Part shown: positions 25,851-35,625 of the stretch, in pieces | Numbering within the stretch: position 1 is the first letter of the stretch | Layout of the letters: every line of letters begins with the position of its first letter | From: Syntrophorhabdaceae bacterium | GTDB taxonomy: Bacteria; Desulfobacterota; Syntrophorhabdia; Syntrophorhabdales; Syntrophorhabdaceae | Assembly (NCBI GenBank): GCA_963665295.1 | Contig: OY762209.1 | Span: forward strand, 1,664,001-1,728,000 | DNA length: 64,000 nucleotides | Reading direction: 5' to 3' | Position numbers and translations under genes: made by a program | The notes under the pieces: generated by a model | Seen by the model: the letters and a program-made list of their open reading frames with translations, nothing else | Databases searched by the model: none | Told to the model about the DNA's origin: nothing

Positions 25851-26585
25851 TTATCTTTCCAGCTCCCTTGCAAACCAGATCACTTTCCCATTTACCTTTA
25901 CCCTGTCCGTAGGGACCTGGAAGGCCTCGTATTTTGCGTTGTCGCTGATGATCTTCACCGCGTCGGCCATTACCTGGACCCGCTTTATCATGATGATATC
26001 ATCGAGGGCCAGCGCGTAAATACCACCCTGCGGATCGATATAGTCCCGGTTGCGGTCGATGAGGACCAGGTCTCCGGCAACGAGAGAGGGCTCCATACTG
26101 TCGCCGTCCACCTTTACGAGGGCCATCTTGTCGGGGTCCCCCTTCCTCCTGATCCAATCCTTCCTGAAAGCGACCCGGACATCCACCGCGTTGTCGGGAA
26201 TCCTGCCTCTGCCCGCGCTGATCCTGCCTATCACCTGGGAGATATAGACAAATTCCTTGTCGAGGGTATATCCGGGCCGTCTTTCCCCTACTCTGTGGGT
26301 TCTTCCATCATATGGCACGCTATCGCCGGTCTCTTTGCCGGGCTCACCGCCTCGAGCGAAAACCGGTCCCCTGCCCGATATGAGGTAGTCCAGGGTAATG
26401 CCGTCACGTTCACAAATTGCAAACACTATCTCGTAGGGGATTGTCCCCCGTGTGCGCCAGTTTGAAATGATGGCGGGTCTCACCTCGAGGTACCGCGCTA
26501 AACCGGCGTCATTCTTCAACTCTTTGAGGGCGATAATACGGTCCAGTATCTGATTCGACGTCGGCATGATAAAAGGTTTCAGCAT
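25851..26585 (-). CDS. Phage CI-like repressor (HTH + S24 autopeptidase)
   Basis: N-terminal HTH (LARYLEV....ISNWRTRGTIP), Ala-Gly cleavage site ISAGRG, catalytic Ser (GDSMEP) and Lys (IKRV). Confidence 0.88.
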   Translation of the reverse strand: MLKPFIMPTSNQILDRIIALKELKNDAGLARYLEVRPAIISNWRTRGTIPYEIVFAICERDGITLDYLISGRGPVFARGGEPGKETGDSVPYDGRTHRVGERRPGYTLDKEFVYISQVIGRISAGRGRIPDNAVDVRVAFRKDWIRRKGDPDKMALVKVDGDSMEPSLVAGDLVLIDRNRDYIDPQGGIYALALDDIIMIKRVQVMADAVKIISDNAKYEAFQVPTDRVKVNGKVIWFARELER

Positions 26586-26600
26586 GGCGCACTTTTCCTA

Positions 26601-26631
26601 TTGACAACTATTGTCAAAATGATGATATACT
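26601..26631 (+). promoter_or_regulatory. Palindromic operator overlapping a rightward promoter
   Basis: TTGACAA-CTA-TTGTCAA (26601-26617), whose left arm is a consensus -35, followed by an extended -10 TGaTATACT (26623-26631). Lies 15 bp upstream of the repressor start. Confidence 0.55.
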
Positions 26632-27072
26632 ATGTCCGTGAACACGATGCCGCAAGAGAACGAAGGAATGGCTGTCACGGTAACCGGTTCCGGCATATCC
26701 CGACTCGTGATTCCTTCGAAGGCTTTGCCAGGCGGAGGAGAGACGGCATGGGTCATAAGACCTTTCCTTTCCATAAATAGATCTGTAGTAAGTTTAGAAG
26801 GTCTTGTGAAAAATTGCAATGTGAAAATATGTTATTCTTGTGTGACGCTGACGATTAGTGACAACCCCGTCTTGATGCCCACCTTATTCCCCGTTTCGTT
26901 CCCCGTTTCACCTCCCCCTGCACGGCCTGCCGCACTACGCGCGAGGCCCGGGACACTTGCCCGGCCCGCCTTCTGCGGCAGGAGCCGTCCATCATGGGAG
27001 GCGGGTTCGGCAAAAAGCTTTGTGCCGCAGAAGGGAACAGGCGGAGCGCCGACGGGTCAATAGGAGGAGACC

Positions 27073-27573
27073 GTGGCAAGAAGGATTACCGTAAGTGAGT
27101 ACCACAACTGGAACGACGTGGACGGGGGGCTGAGACGTATGGGCGAGATCGACATGGAGATCACAAGGCTCGAAGGGGACCTTACCCTGAGGGTCAACAG
27201 GCTCAGGGCCGACTACGACAGGAGGGCGGAGGGACTGAAGACTGCGAGAAGGACGATCGAAGCCAATATTGAGTCTTTCGCGGAGGAAAGAAAGGGGGAA
27301 TTTGCGAAGATAAGATCGAAGGAACTGACTTTCGGGGTGGTGGCATACCGGGTCGTGCACAGGGTGGTCATCAAATCGAAGAAGGCCACTGTGGCGGCCC
27401 TGGAGACACTCGGGCTGAGTGCATATCTCCGGGTTGCGAAAGAGCCGGACAAGGAGGCCATGAAAGCCCTGGATGCGGGAACACTTGCAAAGGCGGGCGC
27501 CTCCTTGAAAACGGCCGATCAACTCACCATAGAGCCCAACATGGAACGGATTACCGACAAGACATCGGCATAG
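27073..27573 (+). CDS. gam: Mu Gam-like host-nuclease inhibitor / DNA end-binding protein
   Basis: W.DVD..LR.MGEID, long coiled coil, RSKELTFG.V.YR, L....LR...EPDKEA, G......D...IEP. AGGAGG RBS with GTG start. Confidence 0.85.
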   Translation: MARRITVSEYHNWNDVDGGLRRMGEIDMEITRLEGDLTLRVNRLRADYDRRAEGLKTARRTIEANIESFAEERKGEFAKIRSKELTFGVVAYRVVHRVVIKSKKATVAALETLGLSAYLRVAKEPDKEAMKALDAGTLAKAGASLKTADQLTIEPNMERITDKTSA

Positions 27574-27582
27574 GGAGGCGCT

Positions 27583-27690
27583 ATGTTCCCCCCGAGACAG
27601 GGCCTTTCGGCCCGTGGCGGCGGCACAGGTGGACCTTGCAGGGAGCTTTGGATGGACAAACGAGAAATAAGGAGGCGACACAGAGTATGA
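27583..27690 (+). CDS. Possible 35-aa ORF (relic) between gam and mor
   Basis: GGAGG RBS. Its stop overlaps the mor start (ATGA). No recognisable motif. Confidence 0.3.
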   Translation: MFPPRQGLSARGGGTGGPCRELWMDKREIRRRHRV

Positions 27691-28001
27691 AGAAATGGAT
27701 TACAAAGATTATGGATCAGGTCACCGTGGAGGACCTCCCGGAGAGTTACCGCGACGTGGCCATGGTTGTGGGGGTGGAAAACGCCATAAAGCTGTCCGAT
27801 GCGCTGGGCGGCCTCGCCTATTACTTCCAGCAACTTGACAAAGTGCTCCTCAAAAAGAGGGATGAGATGATCAGGAACGAATTTACCGGGGCGAACCACA
27901 AACCCCTGGCAAAGGAATACGGACTCAGCGAGGTGTGGATAAGGGAAATAGTGCAAAGATCCCGCCTTACGCGGAGGACCGCAATCAGTGGACAGGGGTA
28001 A
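27687..28001 (+). CDS. Mor/C family transcription activator
   Basis: DLPE.Y..VA..VG.ENA.KL....GG...Y, RDEMIRNEFTG.N...LA.EYGLSE.WIREIV. AAGGAGG RBS. Confidence 0.85.
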   Translation: MKKWITKIMDQVTVEDLPESYRDVAMVVGVENAIKLSDALGGLAYYFQQLDKVLLKKRDEMIRNEFTGANHKPLAKEYGLSEVWIREIVQRSRLTRRTAISGQG

Positions 28002-29557: not shown

Positions 29558-29965
29558 ATGAAAAGGGTAATGATGGTCCTTATGATTGTGATTATGGGCA
29601 TATGTTTGTTAAGTCCATCACTATATGCAAGGGGGGGCGGCGGCCACGGAGGCGGCGGAGGCGGCCACAGTGGAGGACATGGCGGTGGAAGCGGCTACAG
29701 CGGCGGTCATGGCGGAGGTGGCGGTCATGGCGGCCAGGGTTATCACGGAGGCGGTGGAGGTTACGGGAACCACGGTTATTACGGCGGAAACAGAGGTTAT
29801 TACGGAGGACGCTCAGGCTACTACGGCGGAGGTTACTACCGTCCCTATTACGGGGGAAGGTACTACGGCTATGGTTACACAGGTATCTGGGTCCCCGGAT
29901 ACTGGTCGGAAATCTGCGACGCCTGGGGATGCAGGGTGGTCTGGGTTCCCGGTTATTACCGGTAA
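29558..29965 (+). CDS. Secreted glycine-rich low-complexity protein
   Basis: AAGGAGG RBS, signal peptide, G/H-rich then G/Y-rich tracts, C-terminal WVPGYW...WVPGYY. Confidence 0.75.
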   Translation: MKRVMMVLMIVIMGICLLSPSLYARGGGGHGGGGGGHSGGHGGGSGYSGGHGGGGGHGGQGYHGGGGGYGNHGYYGGNRGYYGGRSGYYGGGYYRPYYGGRYYGYGYTGIWVPGYWSEICDAWGCRVVWVPGYYR

Positions 29966-30044: not shown

Positions 30045-30118
30045 TGCGACGGAAATTACATCTGAATTCCATTGTTGATTATCCCATGATTACCACCCTT
30101 TGACATCGGTACTGCCCC

Positions 30119-30159
30119 GTAATAGTCAATATATTGAATATCCTCATATTGACTATTAC
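30119..30159. promoter_or_regulatory. Perfect 14-bp inverted repeat upstream of the AAA+ operon
   Basis: GTAATAGTCAATAT-N13-ATATTGACTATTAC, containing the palindrome TCAATATATTGA (30126-30137). TTGACA at 30100-30105 nearby. The repeat is certain; the regulatory role is inferred. Confidence 0.6.
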
Positions 30160-30237
30160 CGCGTACCGTGGGATATTACATACAGGGGGTAGAAGAATAT
30201 AATTGTTGCCCTTTGAACATAGGAGAGGATTAAGATC

Positions 30238-32163
30238 ATGTCAAAAACAACGGAGTTCTTGACGGAAGAAGTAGCGCTATATCTTGTGAACCGGTTGAAA
30301 CCGGAGAAAGATATCCGGCCCGGAGACGGCCGGTTGAAGCCGAAGGGCCGGTCCAAGGGGAGCAGCGCGGCCCCGGCGGGAGATGAAAAAAAGAAAAGCG
30401 CACAGGGAAATTCCTGGTCCGGCGCTGCCGGGAGGGCGGCGCAGTCGCCTGCCGAGGCCCAGGAGACGGGATTGCGGGTTGCCGAACTCGGGGATCTGGT
30501 AATGGAAAAGGAGGATATCCTCAAACAGATCGCGTCGGATCGGGCTATTCTCGAAGGAACGGAAGGTTCGGTGACTCAGGACGAGGTTATCCGGCATCTC
30601 GACGACGTAGGTTCCACGGACGGTTCGGAACTGAGGGCGCTGGCGCGTAACATAAAGCCCGTGCAGGGCCTTGAAAGTTCCCTGGAAGAGGCGGCCCGCC
30701 GGCTGAAACAGGTGAGGGCGAGGATCAGCGAGCTGGCCGGCAACGAGGAGACGGCAAGGACGTATCAGGCGAGGCTTGAAAAGAAGATCGCCACAATCCG
30801 GTCGGCCAGGACAGTAGGGCACCTCGAAAGGGTGATGGAACAGAGTGAACTTGCCCGGATGGAGATGCTTGCCCGGCGGAACGGTGAAAATATGGCGCTC
30901 ACCGCGGCCGACACCGAGACCATCAGGAAGTTCGACCTTATCCTGGAGAAGGCCCGGGAGAAGATCACCCATCTAATGAGCAATGACGAGATCTACTACG
31001 AGGCAAAACGACGGGTCCTCCTTGAATACAGGCGACAGCTTTTGAACGACGGGTTCGTCGAGACGCCGGGAGTGAAGAACGAGGTGATGAAGATTATAAG
31101 CCACCTCCAACTGGGTATTCCCGTGCTGCTGCGCGGTCACCTGGGCGCGGGCAAAACGGAGGTCGCCCTCCACGTCTCCCGCAAATATTTCGGCCACGAA
31201 CCGGAGTTTATCTCCGGGTCCGAAGAGGCGACGAAATACGACATCTACGGAAGAACCCAGATAGGGGTCCGGCCGGAAGACGACAAGATGCGGGAGTTCA
31301 AGAGCAGGATGGATGAATACCTGCGGATGAACCCCGAAGCGGGGAAGAAGGAAATAAAAGAAATCGAGAGGCAGTACTACCAGACGATCGTGGTAAGGGG
31401 CCTCACCACAAGCTTCTTCCAGTACGGACCGCTGGTGAGGGCGATGAAGGAGGGGAGGCCCTTGCTGATCGACGAGATGGACGGTATACCCCATTCCATC
31501 ATCATGCGTCTCAACCATGTCCTCACCAGGCGTCCGGGAGACAGGATCAAGGTGCAGGAAAACGGGGGAGAGGAAATAACCGTAAAGAAGGGGTTCTGCG
31601 TCCTGGCCACGGGGAATATCAAATCATTCCGCTATAAGCGCGAAGAACTGGACGCGGCGTTCCTGTCCCGGTGGTGGTCGAACGACATCACCTATCCGCC
31701 CCAGAACGAGACCTATGAGATTCTCGTTGCTTCCCTCCTGGACAAAAGGGGCAACCTTCAGGTCGGCAACGTTACCGATCTCGACGAACTGAAGAGGCTG
31801 ACCCATGCGTCGTCCGAGATTCAAAAGATTTTTTCGGGAGAACACCTCGACTATTTCGGCGAGGGAGCGGATGCGGTACGCCAGGTCCCTGCGAGCCTCA
31901 AGAAGTCGGTCCTTTCCCTGAGGCACCTGTGGAATGTGATAAGGCCATGGAAGGCGCACAACTTCGACCGGCCCCTTGAAACCTATATCTTGAACGAATT
32001 TATCAAACCGTCGGTAGCGGAGGACCAGATTTATCTGGTCCAACTCTTCTGCCGATTCCGGTTCTATAAGACATGGAAGGCGGACGCCTTTGGCATCCCG
32101 GGATTGACTGAAGCGAAACTGCTGGCCTTCCAGGGGAAAAGCGCGAGCCTGCCCGCGGAGTGA
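30238..32163 (+). CDS. MoxR/CbbQ/midasin-type AAA+ ATPase with a long N-terminal coiled-coil region
   Basis: Walker A GHLGAGKT, GPLVRAMKEG, Walker B LLIDEMD, sensor-1 LATGN, Arg finger AFLSRW, sensor-2-like SLRHL. AGGAG RBS. Confidence 0.88.
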   Translation: MSKTTEFLTEEVALYLVNRLKPEKDIRPGDGRLKPKGRSKGSSAAPAGDEKKKSAQGNSWSGAAGRAAQSPAEAQETGLRVAELGDLVMEKEDILKQIASDRAILEGTEGSVTQDEVIRHLDDVGSTDGSELRALARNIKPVQGLESSLEEAARRLKQVRARISELAGNEETARTYQARLEKKIATIRSARTVGHLERVMEQSELARMEMLARRNGENMALTAADTETIRKFDLILEKAREKITHLMSNDEIYYEAKRRVLLEYRRQLLNDGFVETPGVKNEVMKIISHLQLGIPVLLRGHLGAGKTEVALHVSRKYFGHEPEFISGSEEATKYDIYGRTQIGVRPEDDKMREFKSRMDEYLRMNPEAGKKEIKEIERQYYQTIVVRGLTTSFFQYGPLVRAMKEGRPLLIDEMDGIPHSIIMRLNHVLTRRPGDRIKVQENGGEEITVKKGFCVLATGNIKSFRYKREELDAAFLSRWWSNDITYPPQNETYEILVASLLDKRGNLQVGNVTDLDELKRLTHASSEIQKIFSGEHLDYFGEGADAVRQVPASLKKSVLSLRHLWNVIRPWKAHNFDRPLETYILNEFIKPSVAEDQIYLVQLFCRFRFYKTWKADAFGIPGLTEAKLLAFQGKSASLPAE

Positions 32164-32167
32164 CGCC

Positions 32168-33712
32168 ATGTCGGAACCGCTCAGGCGCAAACCCGCAGGG
32201 ATAGAATCGAAGCAGGTGGTCGAGAACGTATACGGCCGACCGAACAGCGCCAGGGGGCGCAACACCATCGAAGCCTTCCTGAAGAAGAGGGTCGGGAAGC
32301 CCGCTCCTGTAGTCAAACCCCGTTTTGTCGAGGACGAGAACACCTACCGCATTGACCTCAGTCCCTATCAGGCGGTTAACAAACCGAGGGATATCAATGG
32401 TCTCGTCGCCTTCCGGGCCGTAAAGGGCACTACCGAGTGCGTGGTGAACCAAAAGGGTGAAATAATAGGACGGGAGTATGATTTCGTGAGCGACCCCGTC
32501 TCTGTAAACGGCAGGATATTCTTCCAGGCCGGCCTGGGAAAAAAACAGTTCGTCATTAACGAAAAAGGGAAGAGGATCGGGGGGAGCTACGACATGACGG
32601 GCATTCCCCGCGAAGTGAAGGGTCGCCTTGTTTTCAGGGCCGGGCAGGGGAGCAGGGAGTTCATGGTCAACGAAAAGGGAGAAAAGGTGGGGGGTGAGTA
32701 TGATTTTGTGGGAGACCCCCAGGACATGGGCGGACAACTCTTCTTCCGGGCGGGGCGGACCGGCAGGCAATTTGTCGTCAACGAAAAGGGAGAGAAGACG
32801 GCGGGAGAGTATGACTTTGTGGGAGACCCCCGGTATATAGGCGGGCAGATCGTCTTCCAGGCAGGCGAGGGCGGCAGGCAGTTCATCGTCAACGAAAAGG
32901 GAGAGAGGATAGGCGGGGACTATGAATTCGTGAGCACCCCCAGGGGTGTCCGGGGCCGGGTCGTATACTGGGCGAGAGAAGGGGTGAAATATTTCATCGT
33001 CAACGAAAAGGGAGAGAAGGTGGGGGGCGAGTATGATTTTGTGGGAGACCCCCAGGATATAGAGGGGCAGATCGTCTTCCGGGCCAAGGAAAGGATGAAA
33101 TGGTTCGTCATGACGGAAAAGGGGGAGAGGATCGGAGAAACGTACGACACTTTGCGCGACCCCGTGAGCATCGGAGGCCGCATTGCCTTCTGGGCGTTCC
33201 AGGGGAGCGAGTACGTAGCGATAAACGATCGGGACGATTCCCTCGCAGGGGAGTACATCGCGGCAGGTCAACGCCGTGACACGGAAAAAAGGATCGATTT
33301 CTGGACATTTCAAGTCGGTCAGTATTCCGTGGTCAACGAGAAGGGGGAAGCGGTGGGAGGAAAGTATGATTCCGTGGGAGACCCCCAGGATATTGACGGC
33401 CGGGTCGCGTTCAAAGCCGTTCGCGGCGATAGGGAGTTCGTAGTCAACGAAAAGGGAGAAAAGGTTGGGGGCGAATACGAGTATGTGAGCGTGCCCCAGA
33501 ATATCCACGGCCGCATCGCCTTCTGGGCAAGGGAGGGAACAGGGTTCTTTATCGTCGGCGAGGGAGGCCTCCGCGACGGTCGTCTCTTCGATGAGGTCTA
33601 CTTTCTCAAGCCCCTGCGGGGCGGCGCGGCGTACGTGATCGCGCGCAAAGACAACTGCTATGTGAAAGAGATTGTCGAGGCCTCTTTCTTTCTTAAGCAA
33701 GGAGAAATATGA
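32168..33712 (+). CDS. 37-aa tandem-repeat protein (predicted beta-propeller or beta-repeat)
   Basis: Ten complete repeats plus degenerate flanking units, consensus VNEKGEKVGGEYDFVGDPQDIGGRIVF.A..G...FV. No signal peptide. Confidence 0.85.
   Translation: MSEPLRRKPAGIESKQVVENVYGRPNSARGRNTIEAFLKKRVGKPAPVVKPRFVEDENTYRIDLSPYQAVNKPRDINGLVAFRAVKGTTECVVNQKGEIIGREYDFVSDPVSVNGRIFFQAGLGKKQFVINEKGKRIGGSYDMTGIPREVKGRLVFRAGQGSREFMVNEKGEKVGGEYDFVGDPQDMGGQLFFRAGRTGRQFVVNEKGEKTAGEYDFVGDPRYIGGQIVFQAGEGGRQFIVNEKGERIGGDYEFVSTPRGVRGRVVYWAREGVKYFIVNEKGEKVGGEYDFVGDPQDIEGQIVFRAKERMKWFVMTEKGERIGETYDTLRDPVSIGGRIAFWAFQGSEYVAINDRDDSLAGEYIAAGQRRDTEKRIDFWTFQVGQYSVVNEKGEAVGGKYDSVGDPQDIDGRVAFKAVRGDREFVVNEKGEKVGGEYEYVSVPQNIHGRIAFWAREGTGFFIVGEGGLRDGRLFDEVYFLKPLRGGAAYVIARKDNCYVKEIVEASFFLKQGEI
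32444..33553 (+). repeat. Intragenic 111-bp tandem repeats
   Basis: GTCAACGAAAAGGGAGA recurs at 32666, 32777, 32888 and 32999 (period 111). The units at 32666 and 32999 match at 57 of 59 nt. Confidence 0.9.
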
Positions 33713-35625
33713 ACCCCCGCAATCATGAAGGGAACCTGAAGACTGAGACCACACCGGCCGATGACAGGGGCGCGAAGAGGGCCGCCCGGTTTTTTGCCGA
33801 GCATCTGCGGGCTATCGCCGATTACGCGGGTCAGGCCGGGTTGACCTTCGAGCCGGGTGACAGCTGGACTTTTGACATGGAGAGACGTCGTGGGACCTTT
33901 GACCCATTGTTCTTCACCAAAAGGGGCTTCGGGGAAGCCGAAAGCATGTGGGCCGCCTGTCACGAGATAGAGCATTTCCTCGATTGGCTGAGGGACCCCG
34001 AAGGATATGCCGATCTCTATGGGAGAACGGAGAAGGAAAGACGGCTCGACCTCCTCTACCATTACATGAACGATATACTGGTCAACCGGGAAGAGGACAG
34101 GAGATTTCCCGCCCACATCGAGACAAGGGAATATCTTTACGAGGACAAACTCTTTCCCCGGATCGACTATTCCGGCGCACCCCGCCATCTCCAGTTCATC
34201 ACCGCCATTCTCAGGGAATCGATGCTTCCCCGTGAACCGGTCATGGTTTCGCCCGAAGTGAGGAACGCCATAAGGACGCTCAGGGATATAGACGGAGAGG
34301 GAACGAACCTCATCGACCTCGTGACCGATCCTACCGCGAGACCACGGGAGCGCTTCGGCCTGATCCGGGATTATATCGAACCCGTGTATGAAAAGTTCTT
34401 TCAGGAAGATGTGAAAGAGAGAAGGAACCGTCAAAAGGAAAGACCGGACAGGGAGAGCGAATCCACGAAGGAAGAGACCCCCGAAGGCGGATCGAGAGGA
34501 ACGGATAAAGGGTACATCCAGAACGACGCATCGAAGAACAGGAACAGGAAGACCAAAAGGGGCAAGGACAAACCCCATGACGACGAAGACTACTTCTCCC
34601 TTGAATATGATGAATCGAAGGAGAAGCTCCCCCAGGTTTTCTCCCCTCGCGAGGCCAGGGAGCAGATCGAGAAGGAGATGAAGCGCCGCAGGGAAGAAGA
34701 CCGGTCCGCCGAAGAGGTCGCGAAGGAACAGTTCAGGTCCGAGTACGGTGTTTCCGCCGAGGAAGTGGAAGACTACAGCGAAGAATACAAGAAGATAGGA
34801 CCCCATATCGAACCCCTGAGACACGTGTTCGAGCGCATCATCTCCACCAGGAAGGGAGTGAAACGCCGACTCAAGGAAAGGACCGATGAAGGGGTAATCA
34901 TCGATCCCTCGCTGATCGCCCAGGCTTATATCGACGCTCAAAGCGGCATCCTCAATTCGCGCACCCAGTTGAAGATCATGAGACAGGAATTTGATGAGAA
35001 CAAACCCAAGGATTTCGAATTTACCCTGGTCTGCGACCTCTCGGGTTCCATGAATGAGAACTGGCCGGGAGGCAAAAGCCATGAGCAGAAGTCTTCCGTA
35101 GTCCTCATCATCGAGGCCCTTGACGAATTTGAAAAGAAGCTCAAGGAGGAGAGGCTCGAACAGCTTGTCGACCTCCATGTGCTCACCGAGGTGCGAGGGT
35201 TCCATTCCGAGGACGAAGAGCTTAAACCCCTGAGCGACTCCATCGATTTCTCTACAAGGGTGGGCATTTCCCGGAGGCTGGATAGCTGCATCGGCGGCCG
35301 GACGGCGGACTACAAATCCCTGGTAAAAGTGGCGGCCACCATAGGCCATGAGACGAAGACACGGATCAAGGAGCGGGACCTGAAAAAGGTGCTCATCCTG
35401 ATTACCGATGGCGGGAGCGACGACGTTTCACTCACGCGGGAGGCCAAAAACAGGCTCGCGGCAACGGGGGTCATCGCCAAGGCAATCCAGATCGGTCAAC
35501 CGAGCAACCAGGATATAAAGAAATTCAGGCACGTGTGGCAACGGGACGGTTCTCCGTGCCGGGATGTCACTCAACTGGTAAGGACCATCGAAAAACTGCT
35601 GGAAGATTTCCTGAAGGACCTTTAG
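33709..35625 (+). CDS. vWA (MIDAS) domain protein with an N-terminal HExxH domain (CobT/NorD/CbbO-like architecture)
   Basis: CHEIEH...NDILVN in the N-terminal part, a charged linker, then MIDAS DLSGS...GRTAD...LILITDG. ATGA overlap with the upstream gene. AAGGAG RBS. Confidence 0.85.
   Translation: MNPRNHEGNLKTETTPADDRGAKRAARFFAEHLRAIADYAGQAGLTFEPGDSWTFDMERRRGTFDPLFFTKRGFGEAESMWAACHEIEHFLDWLRDPEGYADLYGRTEKERRLDLLYHYMNDILVNREEDRRFPAHIETREYLYEDKLFPRIDYSGAPRHLQFITAILRESMLPREPVMVSPEVRNAIRTLRDIDGEGTNLIDLVTDPTARPRERFGLIRDYIEPVYEKFFQEDVKERRNRQKERPDRESESTKEETPEGGSRGTDKGYIQNDASKNRNRKTKRGKDKPHDDEDYFSLEYDESKEKLPQVFSPREAREQIEKEMKRRREEDRSAEEVAKEQFRSEYGVSAEEVEDYSEEYKKIGPHIEPLRHVFERIISTRKGVKRRLKERTDEGVIIDPSLIAQAYIDAQSGILNSRTQLKIMRQEFDENKPKDFEFTLVCDLSGSMNENWPGGKSHEQKSSVVLIIEALDEFEKKLKEERLEQLVDLHVLTEVRGFHSEDEELKPLSDSIDFSTRVGISRRLDSCIGGRTADYKSLVKVAATIGHETKTRIKERDLKKVLILITDGGSDDVSLTREAKNRLAATGVIAKAIQIGQPSNQDIKKFRHVWQRDGSPCRDVTQLVRTIEKLLEDFLKDL

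Follow-up and report, generated by a model that had tools for sequence, protein, structure and literature searches.

A three-gene MoxR-type ATPase, propeller and vWA module of Syntrophorhabdales with its nearest relatives in Patescibacteria

Several of the closest described systems to the locus analyzed here pair a MoxR-type AAA+ ATPase with a partner that bears a von Willebrand factor A (vWA) domain. In NorQD, as far as the accessible part of PMC13036017 describes it, a finger of the vWA partner enters the pore of the ATPase ring, and the hydrophobic C-terminus of the partner binds a loop of the ring. In the beta-propeller subsystem of the MoxR-vWA ternary systems, the propeller lies on the C-terminal side of the vWA domain, the third gene encodes a membrane-spanning tetratricopeptide repeat (TPR) protein, and the P-loop is often GxxxTAKS (PMC7159879, section 22). 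In Patescibacteria, also called the candidate phyla radiation (CPR), midasin-like AAA ATPases fused to a C-type lectin tip are targets of retroelements (PMC10907252, in the portion available), and the available portion of PMC5758913 lists a UVR4/Midasin class among such targets. No retroelement target is reported to be commoner in Patescibacteria than these AAA-lectin proteins, yet no function has been assigned to them and their carriers are hard to grow. Here, we describe a related three-gene module at 30238..35625 (+ strand) in a 64,000-nucleotide stretch (the window) of contig OY762209.1 from a Syntrophorhabdaceae bacterium. In this free-living syntrophic host, the three genes would encode an ATP-driven machine for protein remodelling, and the nearest relatives of the system are found in ultra-small Patescibacteria.

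The three genes encode, in order, the ATPase, a repeat protein (the third component) and a HExxH-vWA adaptor. What is new is the organization of the third component, which consists of a leader of ∼40 residues and 10-11 propeller blades; the leader is common to the third genes of Patescibacteria, and the leader helix is found in cis in long-form ATPases. The third component (514 aa, 32168..33712, + strand) was modeled with AlphaFold2 (AF2) at a predicted local distance difference test score (pLDDT) of 86 and a predicted template modelling score (pTM) of 0.75, and the model consists of two helices (14-22 and 28-39), a linker and four-stranded repeats. All top fold matches are propellers, although none is close (best Z 12.2; 369 residues aligned to sortilin with a root-mean-square deviation (rmsd) of 4.7). 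The repeats (32444..33553, + strand) are relatives of PD40/TolB-type blades and form ten units with an exact period of 37 residues at aa 93-462, of which unit 8 is degenerate; a hidden Markov model (HMM) counts 11. By HMM, 18 orthologues have 8-12 blades, and variation is concentrated on a small number of positions within the blade. A secreted PD40/TolB-like protein encoded in the same genome is similar to the blades (E 2e-13; HHalign 90%). The best match in an atlas search with the repeat protein reached 0.79 and is a lead only.

The leader (about aa 12-45, 32201..32302, + strand) comprises the two helices and is the proposed docking handle. It is shared with the third genes of Patescibacteria-type loci, which are adjacent to the same pair of ATPase and vWA genes. 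A profile built from 23 recipient-only leaders, i.e. leaders from the clade that holds the window copy, finds these genes with E values of 1.6e-10 to 3.5e-7, and the next row among 1236 open reading frames (ORFs) has an E value of 0.06; a weak search among longer proteins gave 9 hits. The C-terminal parts of the Patescibacteria-type third genes differ, with tips in several sequence variants and, in another case, a helical repeat. From their C-terminal pattern we take the tips to have a lectin-type fold, and they gave no Pfam hit. In one locus (L070:2148-3701), the gene behind a long-form ATPase combines a helical head with WG-like beta repeats; beta-repeat binders therefore occur in Patescibacteria-type loci as well.

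The first helix of the leader corresponds to a motif that is found in cis, behind the lid, in long-form ATPases. When the leader was scanned against 150 distant ATPases, the best hits fell 30-50 residues after the lid. Of 140 full-core distant ATPases, 82 have the motif pattern in their tail (7 of 147 representatives were dropped as incomplete), as compared to a mean of 2.0 and a maximum of 7 for shuffled sequences. A profile of the cis-motif tails ranks the long-form ATPases first and the third-gene leaders next, above unrelated ORFs, and the alignment of leader and cis motif by HHalign reached a probability of 91.6% (E 8.4e-7). Every ATPase of the recipient clade ends before the cis helix, and so do the nearest relatives of these ATPases. 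A second group of long-form ATPases has a different motif at the same post-lid place, and this provides an independent case: in locus L062, whose ATPase is short, residues 5-23 of the next gene are matched by a profile of the second motif that was built from 15 long ATPases (E 4.6e-8). On a 252-row tree, the short and cis forms require 4 changes. The simplest reading is gene fission, in which the third gene would be the variable tail of the ATPase, held by a formerly covalent helix. Because the first helix of the leader is the cis motif of long-form ATPases, the third gene is probably a detached binding module of the ATPase and not its client. A reading of the DNA made without database searches (the sequence-only reading) had proposed that the repeat protein is either a client or a recognition module; the latter is now preferred and the former less favored. 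The homology of the helices suggests that the leader would dock the third protein on the ATPase. A complex prediction of ATPase residues 268-636 with the leader scored 0.00, but the controls did not fold either, so that this result weighs on neither side of the docking proposal. Around long-form ATPases, we also observed tandem paralogues that share other N-terminal leaders (L069:4089-11043, L067:6363-12567, L074:3-19683 and L063:614-4333).

The first gene (30238..32163, + strand) encodes a short-form MoxR/midasin-class AAA+ ATPase of 641 aa, with an N-terminal extension of ∼270 aa, an AAA core and a lid, but without the C-terminal motif helix of its long-form relatives. Pfam AAA_5 matches with an E value of 2.9e-14. 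The best sequence matches in the PDB are midasin AAA modules (E 7e-17), followed by NorQ (E 0.011), and the protein also matches PHROG 249 (CobS-like, E 2e-21). As is the case for the MoxR/dynein-midasin clade, it has Walker A (GHLGAGKT, aa 300-307, 31135..31158, + strand), Walker B (LLIDE, 409-413), sensor 1 and an arginine finger in addition to the AAA_5 profile; K306, E413, N460, R468 and R478 are invariant in 85 of 85 aligned relatives. A helical insert lies between Walker A and B (about aa 344-390, 31267..31407, + strand). By position and motif it would be the helix-2 insert, and it is dispensable, as it is missing in 11 of 85 relatives. The N-terminal extension had been described as a helical coiled coil; the extension is present, and as a putative coiled coil it gives only weak matches to the coiled-coil parts of JetC, LmuB and PbeC (E 0.0025-0.04).

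[quoted passage not shown] In the AF2 model (pLDDT 82, pTM 0.57), the HEIEH sequence lies on a helix of the N-terminal domain; behind this domain are a linker that is charged and disordered (247-286), long helices, a finger formed by a hairpin (382-429), and the vWA domain. Among 48,161 chains, the best fold match of the vWA domain is the MIDAS domain of Rea1 (Z 23.7, 221 residues aligned, rmsd 3.0), with MDN1 MIDAS at Z 23.2, other vWA domains at 18.4 and NorD at 17.7. The full-length adaptor matches phage CobT-like/vWA proteins (E 5e-13), and its atlas neighbors at 0.95-0.96 are CobT, at 15%, or proteins without a name. The extended, finger-bearing vWA domain has the DxSxS..T..D pattern of MIDAS adaptors, and each of D443, S445, S447, T532 and D567 (35035..35409, + strand) is kept in 107-108 of 109 homologues. 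The putative zinc site, HEIEH at aa 85-89 with D122 (33961..34074, + strand), is intact in the window copy. It is also intact in 47 of 48 homologues outside the recipient clade and in 39 of 57 scorable adaptors inside it, and broken in the other 18 (4 fragments were set aside and D-to-N was counted as broken); on the tree, the motif shows 7 changes. A zincin fold was not among the fold matches of the adaptor, in searches that were dominated by the vWA domain and in which the HExxH domain was not folded alone. Since the adaptor ends in a conserved hydrophobic residue, as in the seating of NorQD, we infer the same seating in the ring. The sequence-only reading is confirmed in its description of a MoxR-class ATPase with complete catalytic motifs and a Walker A-B insert, a 37-aa repeat protein, and a vWA partner with an intact MIDAS and an N-terminal HExxH...D.

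In a search of 1.8 billion representatives, a profile of 32 ATPases matched 735 clusters with E≤1e-30; 30 clusters were looked up, and the 7 that bore an organism name were all from Patescibacteria. Outside the recipient clade, 12 of 12 named sequences were from Patescibacteria (Moranbacteria, Portnoybacteria, Pacebacteria, Levybacteria, Parcubacteria and unassigned), labels that rest on source names and not on a systematic survey of Patescibacteria genomes. No DPANN sequence was among the named hits, although the sequence-only reading had suggested a resemblance to DPANN proteins. A scan of one genome collection with a single ATPase gave 3 loci, all of the recipient type. The ATPase and the adaptor are homologous over their full length to clusters named Moranbacteria/Portnoybacteria, at about 50-55% identity. 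The recipient clade (support 100) forms a shallow branch in the trees of both proteins, which comprise 46 and 42 selected rows, and groups with Moranbacteria/Portnoybacteria-named rows (96), within a wider Patescibacteria diversity. Retroelements lie beside the ATPase-vWA pair in L055, L063, L065 and L068. In L055, the tip is a retroelement target with 22 of 24 template-to-target differences at A and with Avd and reverse transcriptase (RT) adjacent; L063 and L068 show another retroelement, with 13 of 13 differences at A. The recipients are without a retroelement. Neither a retroelement nor a template-variable pair was found in the window or in 4 relatives' loci, and the window genome gave no match to Avd or to the lectin tip and two RT hits, one of which is a group II intron RT.

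Several further observations were made on these relatives. One 928-aa protein (P0278) joins a reverse transcriptase domain (RVT_1 67-268) to a family ATPase that follows it (AAA_5 603-726). Three bacterial-looking loci (L080, L081 and L082) hold ORFs of 3900-4600 aa with several midasin-like AAA modules, which are possibly giant bacterial midasin-like proteins. At L056:396-2108, the first 20 residues encoded by a CCA/poly(A)-polymerase-HD gene are almost identical to those of the vWA gene next to it, and many Patescibacteria proteins in the compared loci begin with a similar M-x-x-F-E segment.

In the host class, the module is patchy but cohesive. The ATPase, the vWA protein and the repeat protein (at E<1e-30) are each found in 19 of 96 genomes; 20 of the 96 hold at least one of the genes, and 18 of these 20 hold all three, always in the order ATPase, repeat, vWA wherever the contig shows the trio. 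The two incomplete trios lie at contig ends, as the G079 contig stops 69 bases after the ATPase and the G013 contig begins inside the repeat gene. The claim that the trio is conserved together therefore stands. Outside the order, a search of 150 sampled genomes of the phylum with the vWA alignment gave 0 matches in 146. In 12 of the 20 carriers, from both host families, the trio sits directly behind a co-oriented flavin adenine dinucleotide (FAD)-oxidase/CCG operon and is often followed by a CoxM/S/L/G-like operon; in the window genome, G001, G010, G070, G090 and G036 it is placed elsewhere, having moved as a block to new sites. A defence-island setting is not supported, given this placement and the lack of a PADLOC match. 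Broken copies occur, with all three genes broken in G093 and frameshifts in G036. In the vWA tree, the two host families form separate branches (8 rows, support 99; 4 rows, support 100), and one Spirochaetes-named protein falls inside the recipient clade. The patchy carriage, the separate family branches, the broken copies and the varied sites fit one old gain, many losses and several block moves. No relative was detected in viral contigs with the ATPase or vWA alignments or in phage records with the vWA protein; plasmids gave 3 partial AAA matches and none for the repeat protein. The composition of the trio is host-like (GC 55-57%, third-position GC 0.70-0.73, as in 4 of 5 other window genes tested), with no compositionally foreign signal by either measure, which rules out a recent transfer. 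Because codon use is host-like and the site is shared by two families, the transfer appears to be old.

Our working hypothesis, to which we give about an even chance, is that the module is an accessory surveillance/conflict module of fixed specificity, which performs cytoplasmic remodelling of the midasin/CobS-CobT/NorQ-NorD type and was taken once, long ago, from a Patescibacteria conflict-type system. As in the family, the ATPase would form a ring. [quoted passage not shown] The leader helix of the third protein could then plug into the ATPase at its C-terminal domain, restoring in trans the cis helix of the long form, and up to six propellers could be displayed. A propeller would recognize a target protein, the MIDAS would grip an acidic residue, and ATP turnover would pull or twist the target. 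Cleavage of the target, or of one of the components, may take place at the zinc site, which is dispensable in many recipients; proteolysis, as proposed earlier, would thus be optional in the recipients, the site being broken in 18 of 57. Most probably, the target is foreign to the cell or present in it only at times, and the module therefore an accessory one. The biology of the relatives, with hypermutated or arrayed binders, is that of conflict systems, as described in the available parts of PMC7159879 (sections 8, 22 and 25) and PMC10907252. Patchy carriage, block moves, broken copies and the existence of candidate client operons without the trio also speak for this hypothesis.

Several points weigh against it. 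The pattern in the recipients is calmer, with a single stable propeller, no retroelement and a metabolic neighborhood: there is one third gene per genome, no retroelement or template-variable pair in the window or in the loci of 4 relatives, and the divergence of the propeller exceeds that of the ATPase only slightly (identity 50-68% vs 61-71%, 6 loci). PADLOC (library of 2023) gave no defence-family match beyond the weak coiled-coil hits to JetC/LmuB/PbeC, and no defence island was found. For the docking, the two types of cis motif do not align (HHalign 2%), the helix is short, and both motif patterns were written after the sequences had been seen. Long-form loci also hold arrays of third genes with other leaders, and therefore more than one docking mode must exist. 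For the origin, approximately unbiased (AU) tests do not reject a tree that holds the other rows together (p 0.40 with distant outgroups, p 0.21). The direction from Patescibacteria to the recipients consequently rests on distribution, depth and the best trees; it is favored but not statistically proven. The proposal of transfer from an episymbiont thus gains a Patescibacteria link and nested best trees, while its direction stays unproven.

The strongest alternative, which we consider possible but unlikely, is domestication, in which the same machine of the same origin matures or recycles a host complex such as the FAD/iron-sulfur oxidoreductase or the molybdenum hydroxylase at the ancestral site. 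CoxD/CoxE-type pairs act as such maturation factors. This reading accounts for the position of the trio behind the FAD-oxidase/CCG operon in both families, for the presence of the FAD oxidase in 19 of 20 carriers vs 36 of 76 non-carriers (kin are not independent), and for the loss of retroelement and zinc site with a single conserved propeller. However, 36 of 55 FAD-oxidase genomes are without the trio, and 85 of 96 genomes have a molybdenum hydroxylase, most of these without the trio, so the neighboring operons do not depend on it. In the window genome, moreover, the FAD-oxidase and molybdenum hydroxylase operons are ∼2 kb apart and 1.8 Mb from the trio, and the genome has its own MoxR/CoxE-type vWA pair.

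Less probable still is that the repeat protein is itself the client, its leader binding the MIDAS through a conserved acidic residue, as the ubiquitin-like (UBL) domains of Rsa4/Ytm1 do on midasin, and the motor releasing, refolding or cleaving it. The vWA domain is closest to the Rea1/MDN1 MIDAS, the leader has conserved acidic positions, and a restructuring of the third component by the pair has been proposed by Kaur et al. (PMC7159879, section 8). On the other hand, the best conserved element of the leader is homologous to part of the ATPase itself, and the window leader has E-N at the usual D-D positions. It is very improbable that the trio is a decaying passenger without a current role: it is absent from 76 of 96 genomes, with pseudogenes in some and about six losses of the zinc motif, but the frames are intact, the ATPase and MIDAS residues are invariant across two families, and codon use is ameliorated.

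Returning to the surveillance hypothesis, a more specific and speculative version, which we consider possible but unlikely, is that Patescibacteria made exchangeable heads (lectin, helical-repeat, propeller) by moving the C-terminal helix of a midasin-like motor to separate genes, and that an ancestor of Syntrophorhabdales acquired one such system from an epibiont, equipped it with a propeller and retained it for inducible use, either as a weapon or as a sensor, against epibionts or phage. If true, the module would be a minimal, split bacterial model of midasin.

The module lies in a genome of a single 5.5-Mb contig (54.7% GC), and the closest named homologues of its proteins are from Syntrophorhabdus and kin. 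Contigs of two studies span the whole stretch without differences, although these studies may include the source of the stretch. The genes are co-oriented and coupled, with a 4-bp gap after the first and an ATGA overlap between the second and third, and are preceded by an AT-rich region (30100..30237, + strand; 39% GC vs 55% for the genome) that contains a purine-rich ribosome-binding site and a sigma-70-like site at 30175-30203 with a 10/12 consensus match (5 such sites found vs 0.8 expected). In this layout, as in the absence of a recognizable signal peptide and in the cytoplasmic setting, the sequence-only reading agrees with our data: no hydrophobic signal or membrane segment was seen in the three proteins by hydropathy (maximum 1.08 over 19 residues), with no dedicated signal-peptide predictor run. 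Directly upstream, at window ∼29558-29965, is a small glycine-rich ORF with a hydrophobic N-terminus, which is not seen beside the trio in G001. A Mu-like regulatory remnant (cI/S24 repressor, Gam-like and Mor-like genes) lies at 25851-28001, with no transposase or structural genes seen nearby; its repressor and Gam-like gene are also at the same site in G001. A link between the trio and these genes 2 kb upstream was ruled out, as they are absent beside the trio in G023, G015 and G036.

No curated model for CobS, NorQ or CbbQ hit the ATPase, and no linked client was found. In agreement with the sequence-only reading, no known client was recognized: there is no Rubisco, the only heme-copper subunit is CcoN-like, and the CobN-like gene is in a TonB-receptor cluster. 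CobN, CcoN and GvpN were rejected as clients. A cbb3-type oxidase subunit I-like gene and its neighbors are at G000:C1:4621403-4625325 (L090), in a lineage that is regarded as strictly anaerobic. A gas-vesicle cluster with GvpN (E 1.9e-98) is at G000:C1:4293273-4302670 (L086), and weaker hits suggest the same ATPase in G003, G011, G022 and G029.

Neither the Syntrophorhabdales module nor a detachable helix was described in the papers that our literature searches gave, and we found no paper joining Syntrophorhabd* with MoxR or Patescibacteria with retroelement, AAA and von Willebrand; Paul et al., who in 2017 reportedly described midasin-like AAA/lectin retroelement targets of Patescibacteria, may already describe the partner gene. 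As compared to the Patescibacteria AAA-lectin targets, the ATPase family is the same and retroelements stand beside several of its loci, but here the variable module is a separate gene, it is a propeller and not a lectin, the retroelement is missing and the host is free-living. Neither a detachable helix nor a HExxH-vWA partner is mentioned in the descriptions of AAA-lectin proteins in the available parts of PMC10907252 and PMC5758913. The copy described here, which has no retroelement and stands in a free-living lineage, represents a version of fixed specificity, and this makes its target accessible to isolation. The gain of several genes by a free-living lineage from an episymbiont would run in the less common direction and may indicate that the lineage was once a host. 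The Esr pathway of oral Actinomycetota, as far as the accessible text of bioRxiv 10.64898/2026.09.08.750141 describes it, shares MoxR, vWA and propeller parts and senses Patescibacteria epibionts; however, Esr has a secreted filamentous sensor, a kinase, FHA and Esx parts, none of which is present here, and the window system is cytoplasmic and itself Patescibacteria-related. With the CobS-CobT, NorQ-NorD and CbbQ-CbbO pairs and the phage MoxR and metallopeptidase-vWA pairs (PMC7824862 and PMC13036017, in the parts available), the module shares the partner layout of N-domain, charged linker, finger and vWA, and it differs in its long N-terminal extension and third gene. [quoted passage not shown] With the MoxR-vWA ternary systems (VMAP, iSTAND, FtsH and beta-propeller; PMC7159879) it shares the MoxR ATPase, the vWA domain, a variable third part, the retroelement link and the propeller theme. 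No Pfam or NCBIfam hit to VMAP, iSTAND or FtsH components was found in the three genes or 7 neighbors, and the hallmarks of the beta-propeller subsystem are absent, as the vWA domain ends its protein, there is no membrane segment and the P-loop is GHLGAGKT. The cis/trans helix provides a testable rule for how third components join MoxR-vWA machines, a question that is open for all ternary systems. The module thus lacks the defining features of the four published ternary types, but it is organized like a ternary system and appears to work like NorQD, CobST and midasin.

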